Positions 9,684-47,565 are shown, counted from the first letter of the stretch. The stretch: 64,000 bases of DNA from Methanomassiliicoccaceae archaeon (GCA_963827135.1 CAWGZX010000004.1:69521-133520); one strand, 5' to 3'. The notes: generated by a model from the letters alone, not told the origin. Made by a program: numbers and translations.

Positions 9684-11350
9684 CTCCCTCCCCCCGCGCA
9701 GGCGCATGCGCAAGCACAGGCGCATGCGCATCCATGTCCACCTACCGATGAGCCGGCCTTGCTCGCTGGTGCAGGGTTGGTCACCGGGGCGATCTCCCTG
9801 GTCAGCCCTCTGATGTCCTTGACCACGTTGTTGCTGGCGTTGCGCAGCCTCGAGACGTAGTCGCCAGCGATGTTGCCTCTTGTGGCATCGGCCGTTCCCG
9901 CCGTCCTGCCGACTGTAGGCCCCGTGGATGTCCTCGGAAGCGGGAGGATGACGATATCCCTCATCATCCTGTCCTCGTACCGACGATCGAGCATCATCCA
10001 GTCGTTCTTTTCCGCGAGGGACTTGGCGAAGTCCTCGGGGGTCCCCGCCGCCTTGACCTCCTGCCAGGCCTTCTCGCATATCCTATCATAATAAGTCTTG
10101 GTGGCCTCGACGTCGAATCCCGCCATTTTGGCTCGGACCGACCCGATGAGCTCGACGAGCGTCGCCTTGAGGTCGCCACGATTTACCTGTCCGTCCTTGA
10201 TGGAATGCAGGTACATCGTCTCGTATTCGCGCTCGCCCTTGTCAGCCTTCTTGATAAGGCGCATGGGGAATTCCTCGGATACGACCTGGACCAACCCTTT
10301 CTTCGTCAGCCCGAAGAGTATCATCGTCGCCACCACCTCCAACGGCCGCTCTAGGACTACGGCGGCCTCCACCGCCGTCAGGTCCCTTCGTGGACCTGCG
10401 CCGACCACGTCGAGCTTGGGCTCGAAGTAATCCTTCGCGTCCCGCCTTGCCCTTCGCAGCGAGAGAACGATGGTGGTCACGAAGAATGCCCCGAACAGGA
10501 AGGGTATGAGCAGGCCCGAGAGGGTGCACACGTCCCCAATTATGTCGATCGGAGGCTCGTCGGATCCAGGCTCGAAGAACACGTCCACATAGCCCTTGGG
10601 GAATCCCGCCCCGAAGTCCACTGCGCCGCTGGACACCGATTCCGACGAGACGGTGTTGTATTGCCACGAGGCCACGACCATTCCTGAGCTGTTGTCAACC
10701 TCGATAGAGTGCCATGGGAACCCCTCCAACCATACGGCCTGCGAGGTGTTATCGAACCCTTGAGGGAAGTAGAAGTTCTCCTCCAACGTACCGATGTTCC
10801 CGATCTGGAACTGGGTGCTGAACCAGGTCGGCCTGAACCTCACTCCGACGGTGTCGGGTACCAAAGTGTTGTTGTAGACCATGTGCGGGTTGTTCACCTT
10901 GAAGCCCAGCTCGAACGTGCCCTCGCTCTGGATCATACCGATCGTGGTTTGATCGAACTCTACCGCGATGCCGGGGGTGACATAGGGCGAGTCATGAATC
11001 TGGGATGGCTGTCTGATCTCACCGCTGACCAAGATCCAGGCCTGGGCAGAAGCCAGGTTATAAAAATTGTTCGGCATCCCAATATCGACGCCGTCCAGAT
11101 AACCGACGTTCGTGAAATGGAAGTAGTACTCGATGTCCACGCTCCCATCCCTTAAGGCTGTCACGTTCACCTTCTGTTCCGCCAGGGAGAAGGTGTAGTC
11201 CTGAGCCGTGGAGGTCGTTGCCAGCCCTCCGAAAGGCTGGAAGAGCATTATCGCCGCGAGAAGGGCGAACGCGAAAAGAACGAGTGCCGAAGTCACGGAC
11301 CTTCTGCGTTTTGCCAATGGATCACCACTTAGGAGCCTCTTCCAAGGCAT
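9680..11350 (-). CDS. DUF2207-like membrane protein with C-terminal (Cys-Ala)6-GGGR tail
   Basis: N-terminal signal/TM, extracellular beta-rich domain, TM at about aa 280-300, DLTAVEAAVVLE..ATMILFGLTKKG helical domain, tail GGHGCACACACACACAGGGR. Confidence 0.85.
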   Translation of the reverse strand: MPWKRLLSGDPLAKRRRSVTSALVLFAFALLAAIMLFQPFGGLATTSTAQDYTFSLAEQKVNVTALRDGSVDIEYYFHFTNVGYLDGVDIGMPNNFYNLASAQAWILVSGEIRQPSQIHDSPYVTPGIAVEFDQTTIGMIQSEGTFELGFKVNNPHMVYNNTLVPDTVGVRFRPTWFSTQFQIGNIGTLEENFYFPQGFDNTSQAVWLEGFPWHSIEVDNSSGMVVASWQYNTVSSESVSSGAVDFGAGFPKGYVDVFFEPGSDEPPIDIIGDVCTLSGLLIPFLFGAFFVTTIVLSLRRARRDAKDYFEPKLDVVGAGPRRDLTAVEAAVVLERPLEVVATMILFGLTKKGLVQVVSEEFPMRLIKKADKGEREYETMYLHSIKDGQVNRGDLKATLVELIGSVRAKMAGFDVEATKTYYDRICEKAWQEVKAAGTPEDFAKSLAEKNDWMMLDRRYEDRMMRDIVILPLPRTSTGPTVGRTAGTADATRGNIAGDYVSRLRNASNNVVKDIRGLTREIAPVTNPAPASKAGSSVGGHGCACACACACACAGGGR

Positions 11351-36950: not shown

Positions 36951-37028
36951 GGGCCCATAGCTTAGCCTGGTTGGAGCGCCCGGCTGATAACCGGGAGGTC
37001 AAGAGTCCAAATCTCTTTGGGCCCACCA
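36951..37028 (+). tRNA. tRNA-Ile(GAT), CCA encoded; integration target
   Basis: Acceptor GGGCCCA/TGGGCCC, anticodon arm CCCGG-CTGATAA-CCGGG, T arm AAGAG-TCCAAAT-CTCTT. Confidence 0.95.
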
Positions 37029-37039
37029 TTTCATCTGGC
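37005..37039 (+). repeat. attL (35 bp: tRNA-Ile 3' end plus 11 nt)
   Basis: GTCCAAATCTCTTTGGGCCCACCATTTCATCTGGC, identical to 45601..45635. Confidence 0.95.
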
Positions 37040-38132
37040 ATCGGTCCGAAAATGCCCCGACTGTGCAGAGTCCTGCACAACCGAGGCGACAAATCGGTCC
37101 TGAGCCTTCATAGGGTCTTCCTGGTCGGACAGGTTGAGACCGAGATACTTCTTCGTCATGTCGATGGACTCATGCCCCAACATCTCGGAGATCGTCTCTA
37201 TAGGCGTTCTAGCTGCCATTGACGCCTCCCAAACGTCCTCCTCATGCGTATGGTTCTAGAAGTCGAACGTCCTGGCGAATGCGTTCTCCATTCGATTCTT
37301 GAACCCCTGGACTATCTTATCCGATGCCTGACTCAGAATAGCCTCTCAGCTCTCCATGCCATTCATGGATGAATAAGAGATCGGGAACGGTTTGGCTAGG
37401 ATATTCCTTCTTGAACCGTTCCACCATAAGCTCTCTTTCATACATCCATCTGGCAACAAATTCCTTCACCGTGTCGTTCAGCATCATGGTCCTGATCTTG
37501 CCGCCATTCCGGCCTTTCCCTAACACCGTAACGGTCCTGGTCTCCACCTCGGATGCCTTTTGCCTCATGATCTCGATTCTCCGGCATCCCAGACCCAGCT
37601 CCATAGCAAGGATGGCGCCCTCCATTGGATCAGCCATGTTGATGAGGGCGCTCCATACCATCGTCTCCCTCCTCGATCTAGCCAATCGACTGTCGTGCGC
37701 TCGTTTTTCGGCCATTCTAGCTCCATCTTGCTAACAATGGTTTCCATTCGCTTCTAAGAAGCGCTTGAAGAATGAGAGCATCCACATTCGGTTAGTAGGG
37801 TGTCCCACCGTATACCTTGCCTAGAAGATGCCGAATCTCGGTTTCCCCTATTAGCCAGGCATCATGCTGGAGTCCCGCATTCGATAGGTAGTTATGCTCT
37901 TGTTCAGTACCCATTCCGCGCTCTCTATTGTCTTTTTGGACCTTCCCTTAAGGCGCATCCTGTCCACGTATTCCCTAATCGATTCCCTGAGGAGCCTTGC
38001 CTTATCGGGCATTTTAGACTCCTCGGACAAGGATTGCGCGTCCTGGCTAGTAATGGTTACGGAACCGTCCGATTCCGAAGCCCCACGCCTTTTTATTATG
38101 GCTCGACCAATGCGGTGGCGTTTTGAGGACAT
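37031..38132 (-). pseudogene. Tyrosine recombinase/integrase, multiply frameshifted
   Basis: LGCRRIE (R), GKGRNGGK (K), NHT/MRRTFGR (HxxR, across a shift) and LGHESIDMTKKY (H,Y) are spread over frames; one in-frame TAG. Confidence 0.85.
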
Positions 38133-38137
38133 GATAA

Positions 38138-38494
38138 TCAGCCACTTGGGTTTAGACTTCGACCAAGAACCGATTCCTTTGAAGGCGTGCCACCCCTTCC
38201 ATATATGCCGAAGGCGCGTCGAACCTCCGACGCTTCAAGGTCTCCTTCGGCATCCCCTAGGATTTCACTCTCCTCGATGGTCCTCTTGATGCTTCTCCAT
38301 CCAAAATTGAAACCTGCATAAGTGGCAAACCTACCAATTGCAATGAGCAGGAAATAATCACTGACACCGGGATACAATCTCGCCATTTCTGCCCGCAATT
38401 GGCTTAGCGCTTTTCCTTCATTGAGGTTCGTCACGACGAAGTCGTACGCGTCGAGATAGCATTCTGGAGGAAGCTCGCTACGGAAGGGGCTCAT
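38138..38494 (-). CDS. Hypothetical element protein
   Basis: MSPFRSELPPECYLDAYDF..; start overlaps the stop of the upstream ORF; C-terminus may be out of frame. Confidence 0.5.
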   Translation of the reverse strand: MSPFRSELPPECYLDAYDFVVTNLNEGKALSQLRAEMARLYPGVSDYFLLIAIGRFATYAGFNFGWRSIKRTIEESEILGDAEGDLEASEVRRAFGIYGRGGTPSKESVLGRSLNPSG

Positions 38495-38781
38495 GTCACC
38501 ACATCCACTTCGGTGTCCTCGACAATCAACAGGTGCCTTGCAGAGACGCGCTGATAAACGACCCTGGTATTGGCCATCTTCTTCAAGCTTCTCTTGATGC
38601 TCGGGATGCGCTCGATTGTGGTCTTCAAAACAACGGCATACGCGACCTCTGTTTCGGGGGGCGTATTGCCACAAATATCCGTACCTTTCTTTGCATATGA
38701 TTTCCTTTCTGAGGTAGGTGCGAGAACTCTCGTCCTACCGTCAATACTATTTCGCGGCAACGGTGCTGGCATAAAAAGCAA
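38491..38781 (-). CDS. Hypothetical element protein (start uncertain)
   Basis: Open frame ending in an ATGA/TGAC-type junction with the 38494 ORF. Confidence 0.4.
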   Translation of the reverse strand: MLFMPAPLPRNSIDGRTRVLAPTSERKSYAKKGTDICGNTPPETEVAYAVVLKTTIERIPSIKRSLKKMANTRVVYQRVSARHLLIVEDTEVDVVT

Positions 38782-39141
38782 TCCTACGCGCGCGAATTCC
38801 CGTGTTCGCGTACGCGTGAGGGTTCTACGATTCCTCGTTCGAGCCGTGCAATCCTCAAAAGACGAGGCACTATAAACACCCTTAAATCGTGCAGGAAACG
38901 GCTCTTCACGGCGTTCTGCTTCGAATTCCGATGTAGGCTATTAACAGGTCAAAATTCGTTGTCCTGAACGGAGATTTTTCCCTCCGTCAACCACCCTCAT
39001 CTCTTCTCCCCTTGCCTAGGGGCCCTTGCCCCATCCCCACATCTCTACGATAAGATGAGTGCTGGTGGGGATAAAGGTTGAATGTTATTGGGTGTAATAG
39101 TACAATCCAGAGTTCTCCAATTACGCATACTGTCATTACTA

Positions 39142-39375
39142 ACTAGCAAGCCCCTGAAAGGGGCTTCAAGGTTGTATAAGGGCCCGCATATTGCACATTT
39201 AGAACTGTACATATAGCCGAAGGCTTGGTCCCAGACTTCGCCTTCGGTTCATTTAGGAGGATAAGTGGGGATGATGGTTGGTAGGTGATGGTTAATGGTG
39301 TGATATTACTCCATATTAATCCTCATTAACGCATAGTATTGCATTCACTCACTAGCAAGCCCCTCTTTAGGGGCT
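39142..39375. repeat. Two copies of ACTAGCA + AGCCCCT-loop-AGGGGCT hairpin, 209 bp apart
   Basis: 39142 ACTAGCAAGCCCCTGAAAGGGGCT; 39351 ACTAGCAAGCCCCTCTTTAGGGGCT. Confidence 0.85.
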
Positions 39376-39529
39376 GTATATACATACTATACGCAATACG
39401 CAAGCATGCGGGGCCCTTGCAGACTTGCGATATGTAAGGATGTAAGGTTGCGTATTAGGGGGGTTGTGAGGTACTGTGAGCCCTGTACACACCCTACTCT
39501 AACACACATCAAATTCACAATTATATATG

Positions 39530-41360
39530 TTAATGATTGAAATAATGTTGGCTTACGTGCAATAGGAGAATAAGAATATAGGGCGGTCCATAATCCAGCG
39601 CCTCCTCCCAATGATGTTGGTCGTATGCAATATCCATACACTTGTTGAATAGTTCCTTGGTCCGAAGGAAGTCGTATCTTTCCGCATAAATCATCTGCTG
39701 GTACTTATCCTCGTCTACGATTTCAGCTAATATCGGCCAAATTTTTGTGGTCCCCATCCTCGTAAGATGGTTGACGAAGTCTCCTTCCCATTCAATTCCC
39801 TTACCGTATTTCTCACACAAAGACAATATTCTCTTTCATCGTTAAAGAGCCCTTGAATCAATAAGGCCCAGATGAGATTTCTCCCCCTTCAGCAGGAAAT
39901 AGTACTTGTTCTGTCCCTTGTTTTGGATTGCATATGTCACACTACCAGCTTTCCTTTGGCATTTGTAGGCTCAAGGATTTTTCTCGCGTCTGCCGTTAGA
40001 TATTCTTCTCTGAACGTTTCCTTGTATAGCTTATCACTATCGAAGACATCGGTGAGTCTCGACATCTTGTCGAGCTCGCCCTCACAAGCCAAGAACGTCT
40101 GAGCGAGGATGCGTATCTGAATGGCTTTGTCTTGTCCATACCCCATGTCTTCTAGTTCTTCAATTATTGTAAGGTTGCTGAATGCTCTCTCTTGTCTCTC
40201 GTAAAAGACGCCTGGAGGCAGTTCTTCCCTGAACTTGTCCTGCAGCTCGAGTTGAATCCTATCGTTTGCTCTTAAGTTCCATCGTTGAACCGGGTTCTGT
40301 CTGTTATTACATATGGTCACATTGACCAGGAAATCCTTGGACTCAGACTTAATGACCTTAGCCAGGACGTATATCGATTCCATTCTTTCTTTTTCGGTTT
40401 CGAGCCGGGGGTCCCCTGCCCTATCCCTCGGGAACTTCTCCAGACTAGTCACCGTCTGTGCGCCATTTAGGACGCGCGGCTCCGTGAGAATCGCTCTTCC
40501 ATCAATAAATTCTATATTCTCAGCCGAAAGGGTCACACCATTGTGATTGAAGATGAACTCATCTGGGGGCGATTTGCCTTCGAGTATATCCTTGAGGGCG
40601 GTTCGGAGATGCTTGTTCGCGGGACGGTCGGGGGACAATCCCATCCTTATATTCCTCTCGAAGAACCTTGGTCCAATCGCTCAGAACATCTGTTTAGTTC
40701 CATTAGTGGTATTTTTACCACATGCATCTCAGCATTGCTCTCAGTTTTCGTCTTGACACACTCATCAAGAATCGGAACTTGGTGGCGAGAACGTGGTCTT
40801 GCAGTCCAGGAGGGCGTTCCTCCTTCTCATGTTGCTGGATATGAAACTGAAAGCCAATCCAATATCACACCAGATACTTGTCAAGGATGAATTTCTTCGA
40901 TTGCAGGTCCTCTACATAGCTCTCGAGGACAGCACTCTCTCCAGCCTTAAGTGGGTCACCTCTGAATACGAAATGAACCAGTACCTTGTCTATGAGTGCC
41001 GAGTTTTCACTTAGGTGTGCACGGAGATTAGAAATGAGGGGGTTCTTCTTCGGGTCTTGGAGTGGGTTACCGAATACCTGTTCTAAACCAGACTGAATCA
41101 ATTGCACGAATGAATCCTTGAAGAGATTGTAGTTGTCTGAAAACTTGAATTGGTATAGATATAGTACCCTCTTCGCAGTATCAATATGGTATGCGTCAAT
41201 TCCGTAATCATGGGACCCGAATGTAACCTGGTCTATGACCTACTTCGATTTCCTTACCAAACTCCTGAGCCAAATAAAGGGCAGCATAGTAGTCTTCCTT
41301 TAAGCCCCCATAGGAAGGTTGATATTGACGAAAGGTTGCATTTAAGTCCGCTCCTCCAAT
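39530..41360 (-). pseudogene. AIPR family protein (abortive infection phage resistance), fragmented
   Basis: HDYGIDAYHID..LYLYQFK N-terminal motif; FIFNHNGVTL, VLNGAQT and NNRQNPV core; pieces in several frames. Confidence 0.8.
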
Positions 41361-41463
41361 ATTCAGATGAAACCACCGAGACTATAACTTCATAGTAACC
41401 AAAAGATTTTGCTAATGTTTTTGTGCTTAAAACTTCCTTGAAACCTCGGATGAGAGAGATTAT

Positions 41464-42384
41464 GTGGATATATTGGAACTAAAAAGCTCCACCATAATAA
41501 CCTCATGTAAAGTTGTCTGGACCTTAAAAAAATATATAACGTCGTTCGGATTGATGATTGAATGGGGCGCACTCTTGCTACATGAATCATACTTACCGTT
41601 CGAGGAATCGGAGTTGGCAAGTCATTTCCTCGGGTTCAAAGGGGACGAAGCAAGCGCGGATTTGTATACGAAGTTCTATAGGAACCTCGTCCAGAAGTAT
41701 CCTGAACAGGTCGCGATAAGTGAGAGGTTCTGGGTTGCGTCTTCGCTCATGAGATTGTTCCACGATGGAAAGCATTGCACGAGAACTTCGCAAGATTGAT
41801 GGGTGGGGCGTTCGGCAAGGCGGATAAATTCGGGTTTGATGATTGGATAAGGGCCATCGGAGAAGGGCCAAAATTGTTCTTCGAGGCCACAGTCCATCTC
41901 CTCCTTCGAGTATAGCGAACGGTCATACAACCTCCTGAATGAGGGCAACCTCATACCACAATTTTAGGAGGCATTCCCGAATAAAGGCAAGATTGAAGGG
42001 AAAACGTGGCTGGATGCAATCCTCATCAATCCCGACAATGGTTTCGCTTTGGTATTCGAAGCCAAGGTCTTCGCCGACATCGACACTTGCGTTAAGCACG
42101 ATTGTTTGCGCAATCAGTTGGCCCGCATAATCGATTGCCTCATTGACTCGAATCCAAAGCATCATTCACCCCTGAACAAGAGGCGGCCGGAAAGGACGTT
42201 CTTTGTGCTATTGACACCAGAGATGTTCAAGCCAAAGGGACCTCAAAGCCCAAGAACCAAGCTGTACGCCTATAAATTCATAGATTATAGGACCGACCCA
42301 AATTCCATTGGCAGAGACCTTCCACATAGGCACAATTGTGATTGGCCATCGATTTCAGATAGACTGAGTTGGGGGACAACGTAG
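41464..42384 (+). pseudogene. Putative PD-(D/E)xK nuclease-fold protein, interrupted
   Basis: IEGKTWLDAILINPDNGFALVFEAK..RNQLARIID; internal stops and shifts. Confidence 0.55.
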
Positions 42385-42653
42385 GATTTAAACAGAATTG
42401 ACCCGCGTTGCTGTCCATGGTTAAGTCGCTAAATAATCAGGCGTTCATCTTTGCCACAGCCATCCTGGGAACCGAGATACAAATCGAATCATCCTTCCTT
42501 GTGGCCCCCGGGTAGGAAGTTTGGTCAGGTTCTTCTCAAAAATTTATATACTGAGTACTCTTATTAATGTCTGGTATTCAATAATATCTATGATTCGGTA
42601 ATGAAGCGCATCATCTCCTTTACCATGGAAGTGCCCTCCCCGTCCTATCATAA

Positions 42654-43388
42654 CTATGGTTTCTTCAATGGTTTTTTTCCAATTGACAGTAGCTTTTCGT
42701 TTAGCTTTTCTCTCCTTTCTAGGGACTTCTTAGGTTGGACATAATAGGAATCGAACAATGATTCCAGCACATCTAAGAGGAATTTAGCCTCTTCAGTTTA
42801 GACCTCAACGATTTCCCCAGTATTGATTACCTTTTTTCGGGTGGGCTGCGAAATTGCCTACCTGTCTAATTGCGTCTAGGTTTTCAGCAATATGGCCAGG
42901 GAGGCCTGGAAGTGCCCTATCTATGCTTTTATCCAGGTCAGATGCCGCATAGCCTTGTTCTTCAAGTACCATCTGAAGGGTTCTTCGAGATAATGCAGCA
43001 CTAGCTTTCTGACTAATTTCGAACACTTCAACGGCTTCGATGAAATCTTGCTTAATCTTTAAAGGAACTTCGGTGACACAAATCTTGTTGCGCATCTTGG
43101 AAATATTAGAGGTTCGATTGAGCGCTCTGATACTTGCGTGGTTCCATAATTATCCAATACGGTAATTTTGCATGCAATTATCGGTAAATTGCAATTCGGG
43201 CAGGTTGATGAGTAAACATAAGCACTTTTACACCATTCCCCGCGAGCCTCAAAATGGTCTAGACGACCAAACCCTCTAATGGCAACCCCCTCCCACGGTA
43301 TTTCCGTTTGAATGAATTGAACCATAACCCCGCAATGGGGGCATATCCCCTTTTCTCCTTGATTATATTTTAATGAATCCGTAGTCAT
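42654..43388 (-). pseudogene. DUF4145 (HEPN-like) protein with N-terminal zinc ribbon, frameshifted
   Basis: CPHCG..CPNC; ASAALSRRTLQ, IRQVGNFAAHP; tail EEAKFLLDVLESLF..KLNEKL in other frames to TAG 42654. Confidence 0.8.
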
Positions 43389-43691
43389 GGAATATCCAGA
43401 CCTCCGATATGCCCATTTAGATTTATGATATTGCTTATGAGCAATTAATCCGTGGGTTCTAGAAGATAATGGATTTAATTTATATTGGTCAGTATAAAGA
43501 AAATGAAAAGATTTGTGGACACGAACCTCACGGCATCACAGAAGAAAGGCATGACAGTCAGGTTGATAGCGTCAGAATAATATCCCGACCTGGTAAGCAT
43601 TTGATACCAGAGAAGGTCCTCCAAGAAGACCTTCAAGGCCGAGGTCGAGGAGGAAGCGGTTGCTTGGTTCCCGCGCCAAGGCAAGGTCGAG

Positions 43692-44106
43692 ATGGCTATC
43701 TTCCACTTTATTCTGTATGTAAGGGGCCCAATGGCATTCGACCCAAAGGCTATGGCAAATGAGCAAGCATTGAATGCGCATAAGAACGGCATATCCTATA
43801 GCGAGATTCGGGCATTCTTCAATTCTTATCCAGACATGCCTTTGGCTAGTCCTAACAGAAAGACAGAATATATTCGGAAACGAGACAAGGAATTCGCGTC
43901 GTGGCAGGATTAGCATCCGTGAATTGTTCAAGAAGGAGGAGCTAATTGACCCGACGTTGCTCGAGAGGGAGCGAGGATGGCTGACCACAAACCTGACTGG
44001 GAGCTGTGTTGCCGGATTATTGAGAAAAGCGGCGATAAGGAGGATCATCCCGTGGACGCTATACTCTAAGCAATTCCTATATTGCATCAGCAAGCGAGGA
44101 TTATAG
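43692..44106 (+). pseudogene. Fragmented hypothetical gene
   Basis: Protein-like pieces in successive frames (43692..43913, then end of 43774..44106); no family recognised. Confidence 0.35.
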
Positions 44107-44167
44107 GAAACTATTAGGGGAATCGGTCATAGACCAACGCAGTCTTGATGAACGACCAGTAGAACTG

Positions 44168-44383
44168 GTGATTCGCTATAACACCCCGCGCGAGCAGTTA
44201 AGGAAGGAGCTGGAATGGCTGGACCAATTTGAGGAGGAGGTCATGGAAACGGCAGCGCTCTTTGACAGGCGCACCACGAAGCTCTGGGAGAAGCATGCCA
44301 GGCATTCGGATTTCTGGGAAGATATGCCAACAATCACCTTGACGTTAAAAGGGAGGGCACTGTTGAAGGGGCCTAAACCATAG
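44168..44383 (+). CDS. Small hypothetical protein
   Basis: 71-aa helical-looking ORF; no motif recognised. Confidence 0.45.
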   Translation: MIRYNTPREQLRKELEWLDQFEEEVMETAALFDRRTTKLWEKHARHSDFWEDMPTITLTLKGRALLKGPKP

Positions 44384-44649
44384 CCCGCTGATTCTTGTCT
44401 TGATATTCGAATCTGTGAATTCTAATAAGGTAATTTCTTAAGTGATTCCTTTAGACCACTGCTTTTCACTGTTATCCAGTACGATAATAATGGTAAAATC
44501 CATGTTAATTATTCATTTAGATAATAAACTGGAATCGACGTTTTTAGCCTTTTTATATTGATTCTATTAAGGTATTCTTTATATTCTTGGAAAAAAATAG
44601 CGAAGGAAGAGTGGACCCTAGGATGGGTTCTCCGGAGGACTCGAACAGG

Positions 44650-45176
44650 ATGAAAGCAGGAAAGAAACTTGCGGGAGGAAGCATATTAACGATAATTGGA
44701 GTGATATGCTTCGCAACCATACTCGTATCTGCAGCGGTCTTACTCACTGGTATCGCATGGAACAACACAGTAGTTGTACCCATACTCTTACCAGAAGACC
44801 GATGTATCAGGAACAACATTCGATACTATTTACCTGAATGTGCCATTAGATGGATGCAGAGGCAATTCGGGATCTCCCTACGTATTTGGAATCAGTATCG
44901 AAGTCAACAAGCAAATCACGAATGGAGTAATCAAAGTCGTAATTACCAATCAATCAGCTGGAGCTGCCGACGTTGATGCTTCCCTATCACACCTGGGCAC
45001 CTTCAACCTGGACCGTAGTTCCATCATCCCAAGCATCTAATGTATTGACCTTCACATATACTGACGCTGATACAACTTGGGAAGCATCTAGCACCGTTGA
45101 TGTCCCTTCAAGAATAACATATACTGGAACAGGAGACTATAACGTTGCTATAAGTGTTGAAGGAACCTCTGTATAA
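44650..45176 (+). pseudogene. Secreted/surface Thr-Val-Ser-rich protein, two apparent frameshifts
   Basis: MKAGKK + hydrophobic signal helix, then beta-rich segments in frames 44774.. and 44973..; T-rich terminator at 45195-45215. Confidence 0.6.
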
Positions 45177-45364
45177 AACCCTTAATCCAACCCCTTTTAT
45201 TTTTTCACTTTTCTTTGCTTGCTAGTATCCACTTTCGCCGCCTCTGCCCCTCAACCTCATGCCCCTTCAATATCCCAAACCTAGCGCATGGAAGAGCACA
45301 ACCTAGTCAATAATACGGCACTCATCTGAGGATAAGCTACTCGGAGAAATGGGGAGAATGGCTG

Positions 45365-45565
45365 GTGAGGTTCACCTTCAAGGACGGCGGGATGCATTTG
45401 ATGTTCATCAGGGACATTGAGGCTGAAGTGGAGATGCTCGAGGGTGAGGGATACGTGGAGGTTAAAGATTGGCCCCGAACCTCACGGCATCCCTACAGAG
45501 AGAAAGAAAAAGATGGAAGAGGTTTAAGATTAGTTCTTGCTCCTCAAGGAATCGATTATTATTAG
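45365..45565 (+). CDS. Small hypothetical protein next to attR
   Basis: 66-aa ORF with GGAG upstream. Confidence 0.35.
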   Translation: MRFTFKDGGMHLMFIRDIEAEVEMLEGEGYVEVKDWPRTSRHPYREKEKDGRGLRLVLAPQGIDYY

Positions 45566-45600
45566 GGCAAATAATTATTTCTGCCAGCTTCCAAAATTGG

Positions 45601-45635
45601 GTCCAAATCTCTTTGGGCCCACCATTTCATCTGGC
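45601..45635 (+). repeat. attR (35 bp)
   Basis: Exact copy of 37005..37039. Confidence 0.95.
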
Positions 45636-45643
45636 TCGACCCG

Positions 45644-45865
45644 CTAAATGCCGTTTCGAGGGCAATTTAGGGCATTTTGATACTGGGCGAGCTTCTTCAT
45701 CCCCTCACTCATGTCGTCCAAATTGAGGCCCAAGTAGTCAATTGTCGTAGAGGTGTTTTCGTGCCCCAAAATGGCGGTAATGGTTTCGAGCCTCGTATCC
45801 ATGCCAGAGTATACTGCATTCTGTCGAACAAGACGTACCAATTTCCCTTGATCTAGTATTATCAA
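45644..45865 (-). pseudogene. C-terminal remnant of a second tyrosine integrase
   Basis: ILGHENTSTTIDYLGLNLDD matches LGHESIDMTKKYLGLNLSD of the 37031 integrase; 5' part absent. Confidence 0.8.
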
Positions 45866-45947: not shown

Positions 45948-46295
45948 ATGGAAGGGATGGCCAAGAACCTCGAAAATCATGAGGAAGAGATTTGTCGTTT
46001 CATGGCCGATGAGTATGCCTCGAAGGTCATGAGCGCCACCTATGGAAAAGCTCTGAGCATACAGCAAATTAGCGAGATCTGCGAGATACCTATCGCTGTC
46101 GCTTACCGTCGAGTAAGAAGAATGGCTAGCATCGGCTTACTACTTTGCATGAGAGAAGAGTTGGTTTACCGAGGAAAGAAGGAGAGGTATTACATTTGTG
46201 CCGTTGACATGCTGCGATACATTTTCGACAAAGGCACTTTTTCATGCCAAATGCGTTCCGCGACACAACCAATGGTTCTCCAACCAATGGATTAA
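45948..46295 (+). CDS. Winged-helix protein, paralogue of 24073..24417
   Basis: 32 of 38 identical residues over MADxYAxKxMSATYGKAxSIQxISxICEIPIAVAYRRV. Confidence 0.85.
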   Translation: MEGMAKNLENHEEEICRFMADEYASKVMSATYGKALSIQQISEICEIPIAVAYRRVRRMASIGLLLCMREELVYRGKKERYYICAVDMLRYIFDKGTFSCQMRSATQPMVLQPMD

Positions 46296-46554
46296 AGATG
46301 GAGCGATTTCACCAACAATCAAAATAGCATTATTACAGGAATTGAAAGACTAGATTCTTAATGGATAGGTTCAATTAACTCATCCCAGTAGGAATGTGGA
46401 ATTATGTTCCGCATCTCTGTGCGATACCATATCTTCTCTATCGCTAGGTATTTACTCCTCTTGACATCCAGTAATATTAATCATTATCATTTTAGATAAT
46501 TATGATGCCGCTCTGTCGCTTCTAATTGATTCATAATTCAATGACATTGAATGA

Positions 46555-47028
46555 TTAAAGAAGAATAACAATGCAATTTTTCTCTGTGCTAAAAAGGTCC
46601 TCGTATGCCTCTTCTATCGTTGCCGAGGTCTTATCATCAGGAACTCCTACAAGAATACCGATTGCCGCCTGATATTCCTCATTCATCCATAGCATCCTTG
46701 TCATGAATTCGTCAAGTCCCTGCCCATTCCGATAATGCATCAATTCTAGTGGATACTTTTCATCGACGATGAGAGCCGGAATGCATGCTCGAGTGCATTT
46801 GTGACCACTTTTTTCCAACTTGATGATAATCTCGCTAATCAGCAAACTTCGGGATGCCATCGAGTCGCTAGGATCCCAATTAGATAGCATGGCCGTTACA
46901 GCTGGAAAGTTCTTGGTCTTGGTCTGGGGTTTGGATTTCGTCTTGGGCTTTGCTCCAGTTTTCGGGGCTTTGGCAGTAGGTAGATGCTCAATTTCTGAAA
47001 TCTCTGATACCGAATTGACTTCGAACAT
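46555..47028 (-). CDS. Hypothetical protein, paralogue of 13021..13491
   Basis: Shared motifs as listed for the 13021 ORF. Confidence 0.8.
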   Translation of the reverse strand: MFEVNSVSEISEIEHLPTAKAPKTGAKPKTKSKPQTKTKNFPAVTAMLSNWDPSDSMASRSLLISEIIIKLEKSGHKCTRACIPALIVDEKYPLELMHYRNGQGLDEFMTRMLWMNEEYQAAIGILVGVPDDKTSATIEEAYEDLFSTEKNCIVILL

Positions 47029-47217
47029 GCTTGGTCAGCCCGTCTAGGTTTTATGCCGAATCCTTATTGCTTCATAACCGGGGTTATTGTGTTATTAAAT
47101 GGTCGTCGACAGTATCAGAAGTGATATTGCTTTTTCGAATGTGCCCCGATAACCCGAACCTTACGGAGCACCACATGTATTAATAATAGACGTTCCAAGC
47201 GAAATTATTGGATAATT

Positions 47218-47565
47218 ATGTCCTTGACGAAGAAGAATTTCAATATGCCCGATGAAACCCAGAATCCTCCACTAGTAAAGGTCGAAACCATCAAGATTGG
47301 GGGAATGGCCGTGGTGAGGCAAACGTACCAACCCGGGTGGAGATGGTCCAAGCACATGAAACCGCTCGCAGGAACAGACAGTTGCCAAGTGCATCATTTT
47401 GGAGTCTGGATCTCAGGCCGGATGCGTGTCAAAGTCGATGACGGTAAAGAGATGGAGTTCGGTCCTGGTGACGTATCAGACATTCCACCTGGACACGACG
47501 GTTGGGTCGTCGGTGACGATCCTGCAATTTTCTATGCCATAGTCTGCGGGTCTGCTTTGAAGTAG
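47218..47565 (+). CDS. Cupin domain protein
   Basis: YQPGWRWS..DSCQVHHFG..SGRM..IPPGHDGWVVGD. Confidence 0.88.
   Translation: MSLTKKNFNMPDETQNPPLVKVETIKIGGMAVVRQTYQPGWRWSKHMKPLAGTDSCQVHHFGVWISGRMRVKVDDGKEMEFGPGDVSDIPPGHDGWVVGDDPAIFYAIVCGSALK

Follow-up and report, generated by a model that had tools for sequence, protein, structure and literature searches.

The locus described here raises two questions: what kind of element has entered the tRNA-Ile(GAT) gene of a Methanomassiliicoccaceae archaeon, and is that element dead or alive? It lies in a 64,000-nucleotide (nt) stretch of a metagenome-assembled genome (MAG; GCA_963827135.1 CAWGZX010000004.1:69521-133520), hereafter called the window. 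Here, 8.6 kb of DNA is bounded by two copies of a 35-bp sequence, and this segment is referred to as the islet. Judged from its gene content and borders, the islet appears to be a cryptic integrated element, or defence islet, at a tRNA-Ile hotspot where a remnant of an older integrase adjoins it. It is one more tRNA-targeting, integrase-only defence islet, now in soil and wetland methanogens of the Methanomassiliicoccaceae. Nearly all of its genes are broken as assembled and, as explained below, this is more probably due to consensus error than to decay.

The borders of the islet are defined by the attachment (att) repeats, which were identified by a repeat finder run on the window. The att core, GTCCAAATCTCTTTGGGCCCACCATTTCATCTGGC, is an exact 35-bp direct repeat. 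The 35-mer occurs twice in the whole genome (1.99 Mb in 8 contigs) and both copies bound the islet, while the 24-mer contributed by the tRNA gave no chance match in any of 100 shuffles. Between the repeats, open reading frames (ORFs) of at least 150 amino acids (aa) cover 26–31% of the DNA versus a median of 93%, making this the most ORF-poor 8.6 kb of the genome. The G+C content of the host averages 57–59%, and that of the tract from ~35000 to ~49700 is 40–53%. The coordinates of the features are collected in Table 1.

Table 1. Features of the islet and its borders, in window coordinates; shifts and stops are those of the assembled sequence
Feature	Position	Strand	Frame shifts	In-frame stops	Remarks
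tRNA-Ile(GAT), integration target	36951-37028	+			ARAGORN; Rfam tRNA, 65 bits
attL, 35-bp core	37005-37039				Exact direct repeat; 24 nt of the tRNA 3' end and 11 nt downstream
Tyrosine integrase, ~340-365 aa	37031-38132	-	9	1 TAG	Stop codon (37033-37031) within attL
Small ORF directly upstream of integrase	38138-38674	-			C-terminal ~120 aa in a small conserved family
Non-coding tract, ~650 nt	38940-39595				Twin hairpins in an imperfect ~100-nt duplication
AIPR/AbiU-like abortive-infection gene	39596-41364	-	7	0	Full length (587-aa equivalent)
PD-(D/E)xK-like protein, ~305 aa	41486-42426	+	3-4	2 TAG	Unnamed family
Zinc-ribbon and DUF4145 protein	42657-43388	-	2	1 TAA	PD-T7-4-like
257-aa protein	43603-44380	+	3 (all +1)	0	Common to circle L066
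Membrane-anchored beta-rich protein	44652-45170	+	2	0	Pilin-like N-terminus; 161-aa homologue on L066 (tblastn 4e-9)
Conserved right end of element	45365-45600	+			66-aa ORF with motif PEPHGIPT; homologous ends in G004:C119, G004:C9:1718-1966, own genome C5:342582-342719 and L057
attR, second copy of 35-bp core	45601-45635				Exact direct repeat
C-terminal stub of older integrase	45644-45865	-			Just outside the element; tblastn to islet integrase and C6:270164-270460

The integrase gene runs into attL and is not open as assembled, so that the R...HxxR...Y signature does not lie in one frame. It was therefore aligned, using our own frameshift-aware script, to the intact 339-aa integrase of a relative (G118), whose residues 2–335 were all matched on the attL side. 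Once the shifts and the TAG are bridged, the catalytic motifs GCRRIEI, HTMRRTFG and KKYLGL join up (R...H-x-x-R...Y) and the frame-corrected protein matches PF00589 with 43.3 bits (E 4.4e-11), above the curated cut-off of 27.1. The uncorrected frames gave matches to integrases in PHROGs at ~1e-4 only. The islet shares with the SSV-type 'suicidal' integrases of hyperthermophilic archaea (PMC7253208) an archaeal tyrosine recombinase, a gene that overlaps att and a tRNA target. It differs in that the overlap of the gene with att is limited to the final ~9 nt and in that integration causes no division into Int(N) and Int(C). A split integrase of the SSV type was consequently rejected, as the whole gene is beside attL and the interior of attR is the conserved, non-integrase right end.

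Further support for the att core came from a metagenome contig (L057; Ga0209254_10148683), found by scanning metagenome contigs for the att pattern; among viral contigs, the pattern had no match. In the orientation of the window, this contig carries a homologue of the right end of the islet, followed by the identical 35-bp core without a tRNA body and then by an intact integrase C-terminus of 132 aa, the last with 84% nucleotide identity to window 37040-37360. This order is what would be expected of an excised circle or of two tandem elements. The junction confirms the extent of the core and also that the integrase gene ends inside it.

That the DNA between the repeats was inserted is evident from the relatives. 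The DNA of the islet is absent from all 20 of the relatives searched, and an unoccupied site is present in a member of another genus (G010) and in the MAG MFD02979.bin.2.96. At both sites, the homologue of window 45636-45815 comes immediately after the tRNA-Ile gene, with 85% identity in G010. The original prediction had proposed a survey of this tRNA locus as a check, and had named as contradicting it a lineage in which the content was fixed and empty-site alleles were missing; the islet is not fixed, and empty sites exist. In the genomes of the same genus, G004 and G005, the contigs break inside tRNA-Ile.

The unoccupied sites also reveal an earlier event at this tRNA. As the integrase stub immediately to the right of the islet lies outside attR, the site was used before the islet arrived. 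The conservation of this stub at 85% in the other genus further means that it is ancient and predates the split of the two genera. Contig G004:C9 begins with another integrase stub, which is 80% identical to the integrase of the islet. Behind it (L033; G004:C9:1-5000), the cargo is an intact 482-aa gene (155-1603); the AdoMet decarboxylase gene flanking the tRNA lies near it.

Of the 201 genomes of the order, 115 have integrase homologues, often beside a tRNA: tRNA-Ile in G118, G072, G035 and G021, tRNA-Val in G034 and tRNA-Ala in G020 and G059. At the same tRNA, G118 (MFD00905.bin.2.116, Methanomassiliicoccaceae) carries a 2.6-kb element (L051, G118:C1:210900-230899, at 254-2923), comprising the intact 339-aa integrase and one 170-aa membrane protein. 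It is bounded by 38-nt att repeats, which are 97% identical to each other and near-identical to the core of the islet, and next in line is an older integrase stub of 100 aa. In the complete genome G072, tRNA-Ile is the site of a low-G+C defence island (L052, G072:C1:349000-368999) that exceeds 20 kb. The integrase there is intact, the cargo includes GmrSD, a 1618-aa Type ISP restriction-modification enzyme and a QueC-like protein, and 20 kb of sequence did not reach the right border. This island resembles the islet in its tRNA-Ile target, in the homologous integrase beside the tRNA, in low G+C content and in its defence cargo. In contrast, the islet is far smaller and its cargo is entirely different, and the genes of the G072 island read as intact. 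Thus tRNA-Ile(GAT) serves as a hotspot across the family, with elements accumulating at it and integrase stubs left behind.

A further candidate for an occupied site, G018, was rejected, as two full tRNA-Ile genes there flank host-like genes with no integrase. The two complete genes (L012, G018:C36:4500-20000, at 2012-2089 and 10214-10291) are 8.2 kb apart and have similar upstream regions. The interval between them holds stressosome-like genes (RsbR/S/T/X-type), a histidine kinase and a cation antiporter. This arrangement reads as a tRNA duplication or a very old capture, and not as an att pair.

The cargo was sought by translating the islet in six frames, with stops masked, and scanning against Pfam, PADLOC and PHROGs, a procedure whose sensitivity is lowered by the fragmented frames. 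The genes themselves were defined by frameshift-aware protein-to-DNA alignment with the same script, together with homologue searches. On the minus strand, the scans produced AIPR, DUF4145 and the weak integrase matches; on the plus strand they produced nothing. The first of these genes matches PF10592 (1.7e-23), AbiU (9e-20) and an Abi-alpha-like PHROG (2e-25). It covers 99% of the ~590-aa AIPR proteins and aligns end-to-end with one of 587 aa (P0002; 320/597 identical residues, 54%). By its AIPR domain, N-terminal nuclease-like region and length of ~590 aa, it fits the AIPR/AbiU family of abortive-infection proteins.

The DUF4145 gene was detected at 5e-10 without correction, and after joining of the frames at 2.2e-12 (PF13643, covering 2-86 of 88 positions). 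It also matches the PD-T7-4 model PDLC04109 (1.2e-11, positions 73-156 of 211). The DUF4145 domain places it, on predicted sequence features, with the PD-T7-4/DUF4145 proteins, and its N-terminal zinc ribbon is unlike the PADLOC model. The third cargo gene, which encodes the 305-aa protein, has 42 homologues, including some from Asgard MAGs, none of which has a Pfam domain; the best is 38% identical at 97% coverage. Across 35 homologues, D172 and E187 do not vary and K189 hardly does, which gives a D...E-x-K motif. An AlphaFold (AF2) model has a pLDDT of 92, and its matches to the PDB in Foldseek are all non-significant (E > 0.03), the top ones being PD-(D/E)xK nucleases of defence and restriction. 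A pairing of AIPR with an adjacent PDDEXK_4 protein, as in L055, was rejected, as the nuclease-like protein of the islet is unrelated to the L055 protein. Together, these three genes suggest a role of the cargo in defence.

In any frame, and with the three databases named above, no family was found for capsid, portal, terminase, packaging, Rep, primase, relaxase or type IV secretion system (T4SS) proteins. The original prediction, made from the sequence of the window, had described an integrative element in tRNA-Ile with exact 35-bp attL and attR, an integrase whose 3' end runs into attL, two small ORFs, a non-coding region with twin hairpins and defence-like cargo, and it had seen no capsid, packaging, Rep or T4SS gene. 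The analysis upholds this description: the repeat pair is unique in the genome, the integrase stop codon lies in attL, both hairpins were located, and the cargo yields AIPR, AbiU, DUF4145 and PD-T7-4 matches. For the small ORFs, it does so in the case of the conserved ORF directly upstream of the integrase.

How should such an element be classified? Cryptic integrated elements were described in Thaumarchaeota as elements of 2.6–98 kb that have no conserved gene other than the integrase, usually target a tRNA gene and lack the hallmark genes of viruses, plasmids and conjugative elements; tandem arrays of them occur (Krupovic et al. 2019; PMC6563490). The islet combines an integrase, flanking att repeats at a defined target and an unoccupied site in relatives with the lack of virus, casposon, conjugative or insertion sequence (IS) hallmark genes in the six-frame scans, in which three ORFs had no family. 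It is like the Thaumarchaeota elements (PMC6563490) in its target at a tRNA 3' end, att repeats, size range, re-use of the site and defence or restriction cargo. It is unlike them in its Methanomassiliicoccaceae host, in the combination of AIPR, 305-aa and DUF4145 genes, and in a module that is common to small Rep and integrase circles, described below. With its 2.6 kb, the G118 element is close to the lower end of the sizes known for such elements.

A mechanism for the insertion can be proposed from general knowledge of tyrosine integrases. Here, the recombinase would have exchanged strands between two identical 35-bp sequences, one being the attP core of a circular element, onto which the integrase gene extends with its 3' end, and the other lying at the 3' end of tRNA-Ile(GAT). 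As a result, the tRNA would have been restored and a copy of the core left on either side of the element, as attL and attR. In this way the AIPR/AbiU-like, PD-(D/E)xK-like nuclease and zinc-ribbon-DUF4145/PD-T7-4-like genes would have been brought in along with a two-gene module, and the element would have landed in front of the older integrase remnant at the Methanomassiliicoccaceae hotspot. The insertion would be recent, present in part of the population and probably intact, with its apparent pseudogenisation most probably a matter of consensus (indel) error.

This last step requires explanation, as the islet is, as assembled, a succession of broken genes, just as the original prediction had reported. 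In ~5.6 kb, the lesions comprise four stop codons and ~26 frame shifts, each involving one or two bases. All seven of the aligned genes are nonetheless full length relative to their homologues, and none has a truncation, a larger deletion or an IS element. The shifts are skewed in direction (17 are net +1 and 8 are net -1). Three of the single-base indels in the integrase gene are directly visible in the nucleotide alignment to L057. Recoding does not account for the breaks, since reading TAG, TGA or TAA as sense restores none of the ORFs. Read-through of TAG with pyrrolysine was dropped for this reason and also because TAG is an ordinary stop in the host, ending 26% of long ORFs.

Evidence that the assembly itself can be at fault came from the aspS gene of the same genome (C5:126929-128270). 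Its class II synthetase core (PF00152) is split at profile position 200 over two frames by a single-base shift, which we interpret as net +1; past the shift, the conserved C-terminus is found in the following frame. As aspS is essential and single-copy, it cannot truly be broken; the assembly therefore carries indel errors. A similar situation may exist in sister genomes. Two of the relatives are 'MFD' MAGs, one with a Flye-style contig name, and in MFD02979.bin.2.96 (L062, 5363-7370) a KdpD-like sensor gene is split over three frames, which suggests similar indel errors in that long-read MAG. Base composition by itself does not explain the lesions, since the low-G+C genes immediately beyond attR are intact.

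The full length of the genes, the excess of frame shifts over stops, the att repeats that are still identical, the break in aspS and the net +1 direction that it has in common with most shifts of the islet together favour consensus error in a thinly covered, polymorphic and probably intact element, and we consider this the better-supported reading, at a fair level of confidence. If few reads cover the islet, its carriage would be limited to a fraction of the population, in agreement with its absence from all relatives. The original prediction had offered low coverage from a subpopulation as an alternative to an element that is now immobile. The lesion spectrum makes this alternative the more probable explanation, and immobility has become doubtful for the same reasons that favour consensus error.

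Several observations weigh against consensus error. The low coverage is deduced and not seen in reads, and the explanation would fail if the MAG came from HiFi data. The lesion density, ~5/kb, is ~25x that of the worst host region reported and drops abruptly at the att sites, a pattern that would also be expected if a dead element had decayed. The four in-frame stops are substitutions, one being a TGG to TAG change at an invariant Trp of the nuclease-like gene, and indel error alone does not produce in-frame stops. Finally, no intact integrase of the family of the islet is present elsewhere in the genome.

The last three of these observations also speak for the chief alternative, in which the islet is a genuinely decayed, immobile remnant: selection was lost after integration, the shifts and stops in all of its genes are real and excision no longer takes place. 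The lesions are confined to the element, with intact flanks, and dead integrase remnants demonstrably accumulate at the tRNA-Ile locus. In addition, some archaea (Sulfolobus, Haloferax) have indel-rich spontaneous mutation spectra. The difficulty is that decay leaves other traces in this genome. Its true remnants, namely two integrase stubs and a Rep remnant on C6, are truncated, whereas the islet has no truncated gene and no deletion beyond a few bases. The proportion of frame shifts to stops (~26 to 4) and the single-base break in aspS, in the same assembly, also speak against decay, as do the 35-bp repeats, which are still identical. The dN/dS of 0.08 for the 257-aa gene was counted on the same side, but, being compatible with recent inactivation as well as with artefact, it does not discriminate between the two. 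Real decay is accordingly the less likely explanation, and one that we hold as tentative. With consensus error preferred, the locus is a cautionary case: what looks like a pseudogene graveyard shows the kind of lesions that consensus error in long reads leaves, and elements in such MAGs should be called pseudogenised or immobile only with the support of reads.

The remaining alternatives concern dependence on other elements and arise from the right half of the islet. The only homologue of the 257-aa protein (P0164), with 82% aa identity over the full length and the dN/dS given above, is encoded on a contig from Logan (L066; SRR12639246_2756). L066 is 4,177 bp long and has a 30-nt terminal overlap, and is therefore a circle of 4,147 bp. 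Besides the 257-aa protein and the pilin-like protein, it encodes a rolling-circle replication Rep (PF01446) and a tyrosine integrase, the latter from a different subfamily. It has the look of a small rolling-circle element that integrates, with hosts that are Methanomassiliicoccales-like. At the nucleotide level, it is 82% identical to window 43600-44664 over 1,067 nt. The likeness includes the 257-aa gene, the next intergenic region and the start of the pilin-like gene, with the order kept. The differences are that L066 carries the Rep and the other integrase and has no defence cargo, whereas the islet has no Rep.

A remnant of the L066 type is also present in the genome that carries the islet (C6:340.5-343 kb, 340500-343000). 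This low-G+C segment retains a Rep cut to residues 82-252 and a decayed membrane-protein gene; a fragment paralogous to the membrane-protein gene of the islet is at C6:342265-342540. It further contains a hairpin-rich sequence of 54 nt that is 94% identical to L066 2971-3022 and is possibly the origin of L066-type elements. In the islet, this 54-nt sequence is absent, and tblastn of the L066 Rep against the window gave nothing better than E 0.5. An integrative rolling-circle plasmid of the L066 type is thus not supported, as neither the HUH Rep (PF01446) nor the putative origin sequence is found in the islet. From these comparisons, the islet appears to have a module in common with L066-type circles, with no sign of dependence on them.

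Two readings would nevertheless make more of this module. In the first, the islet is intact, mobile and polymorphic and belongs to a modular system, in which L066-type circles of Methanomassiliicoccaceae and integrase-only islets exchange the two-gene module; we give this a small chance. If true, the islet would hitch-hike in a helper-dependent way, as a broad-sense satellite, and would carry defence genes from one tRNA hotspot to another. In the second, which had been raised in the original prediction, it is a non-autonomous, satellite-like element relying on a helper (an L066-type circle or a virus) for replication, transfer or both. The nucleotide identity to a circle with Rep and integrase, the decayed element of that type in the same genome and the lack of a Rep in the islet would all suit a satellite. 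They are offset by the absence of the best origin candidate from the islet, by the different subfamily of the L066 integrase and by the failure to find a Rep, primase, packaging or capsid-redirecting gene in the islet. Sharing of modules is, moreover, common among mobile elements and implies no dependence. The satellite claim was therefore not sustained, and such an element seems to us even less probable than a modular system.

Least likely of all is that a small archaeal virus, as yet undescribed, is present here as a provirus, with structural proteins hidden among the ORFs that have no family, such as the membrane-anchored beta-rich protein. The recurrence of the two-gene module on a 4.1-kb circle and the report of pleomorphic proviruses with integrases in Methanomassiliicoccales (PMC10919331) are in keeping with it, but there is no structural match in PHROGs or Pfam in any frame and no gene of the size of a VP4-like fusogen, and defence cargo takes up more than half of the coding capacity. 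An integrative conjugative element is not supported, as no Pfam family for a T4SS ATPase, coupling protein or relaxase was found in any frame.

Other parts of the islet are less readily interpreted. The small ORF upstream of the integrase has 23 distant homologues of 70-204 aa with 30–45% identity, and one stretch of 34 residues reaches 82%. It has no Pfam match, and the genomic context of the homologues is uninformative; it is possibly a recombination accessory protein or a regulator. The hairpins of the non-coding tract (39149-39165 and 39361-39377) are near-identical and GC-rich, lie in duplication units at ~39065-39170 and ~39265-39377, and have the form AGCCCCT-loop-AGGGGCT, each with ACT(A/C)ACTAGCA in front. 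Compared with shuffled sequence, only one of these units gives a better fold. The hairpins have no Rfam family, no copies elsewhere in the genome and none at related loci. The families of the 305-aa nuclease-like protein and of the 257-aa protein, both unnamed, are modest leads for the study of defence systems and of small archaeal plasmids, respectively.

To the right of attR, within window 45948-47565, there are a helix-turn-helix (HTH) gene (45948-46295) and a cupin gene (47218-47565). Paralogues of both are clustered in the same genome at C5:341-342.7 kb (C5:340991-342719) and also occur at C4:93578-94322. The C5 cluster holds a copy of the right-end ORF of the islet (PEPHGIPT) as well, and is probably debris of related elements, the small genes of which are now intact.

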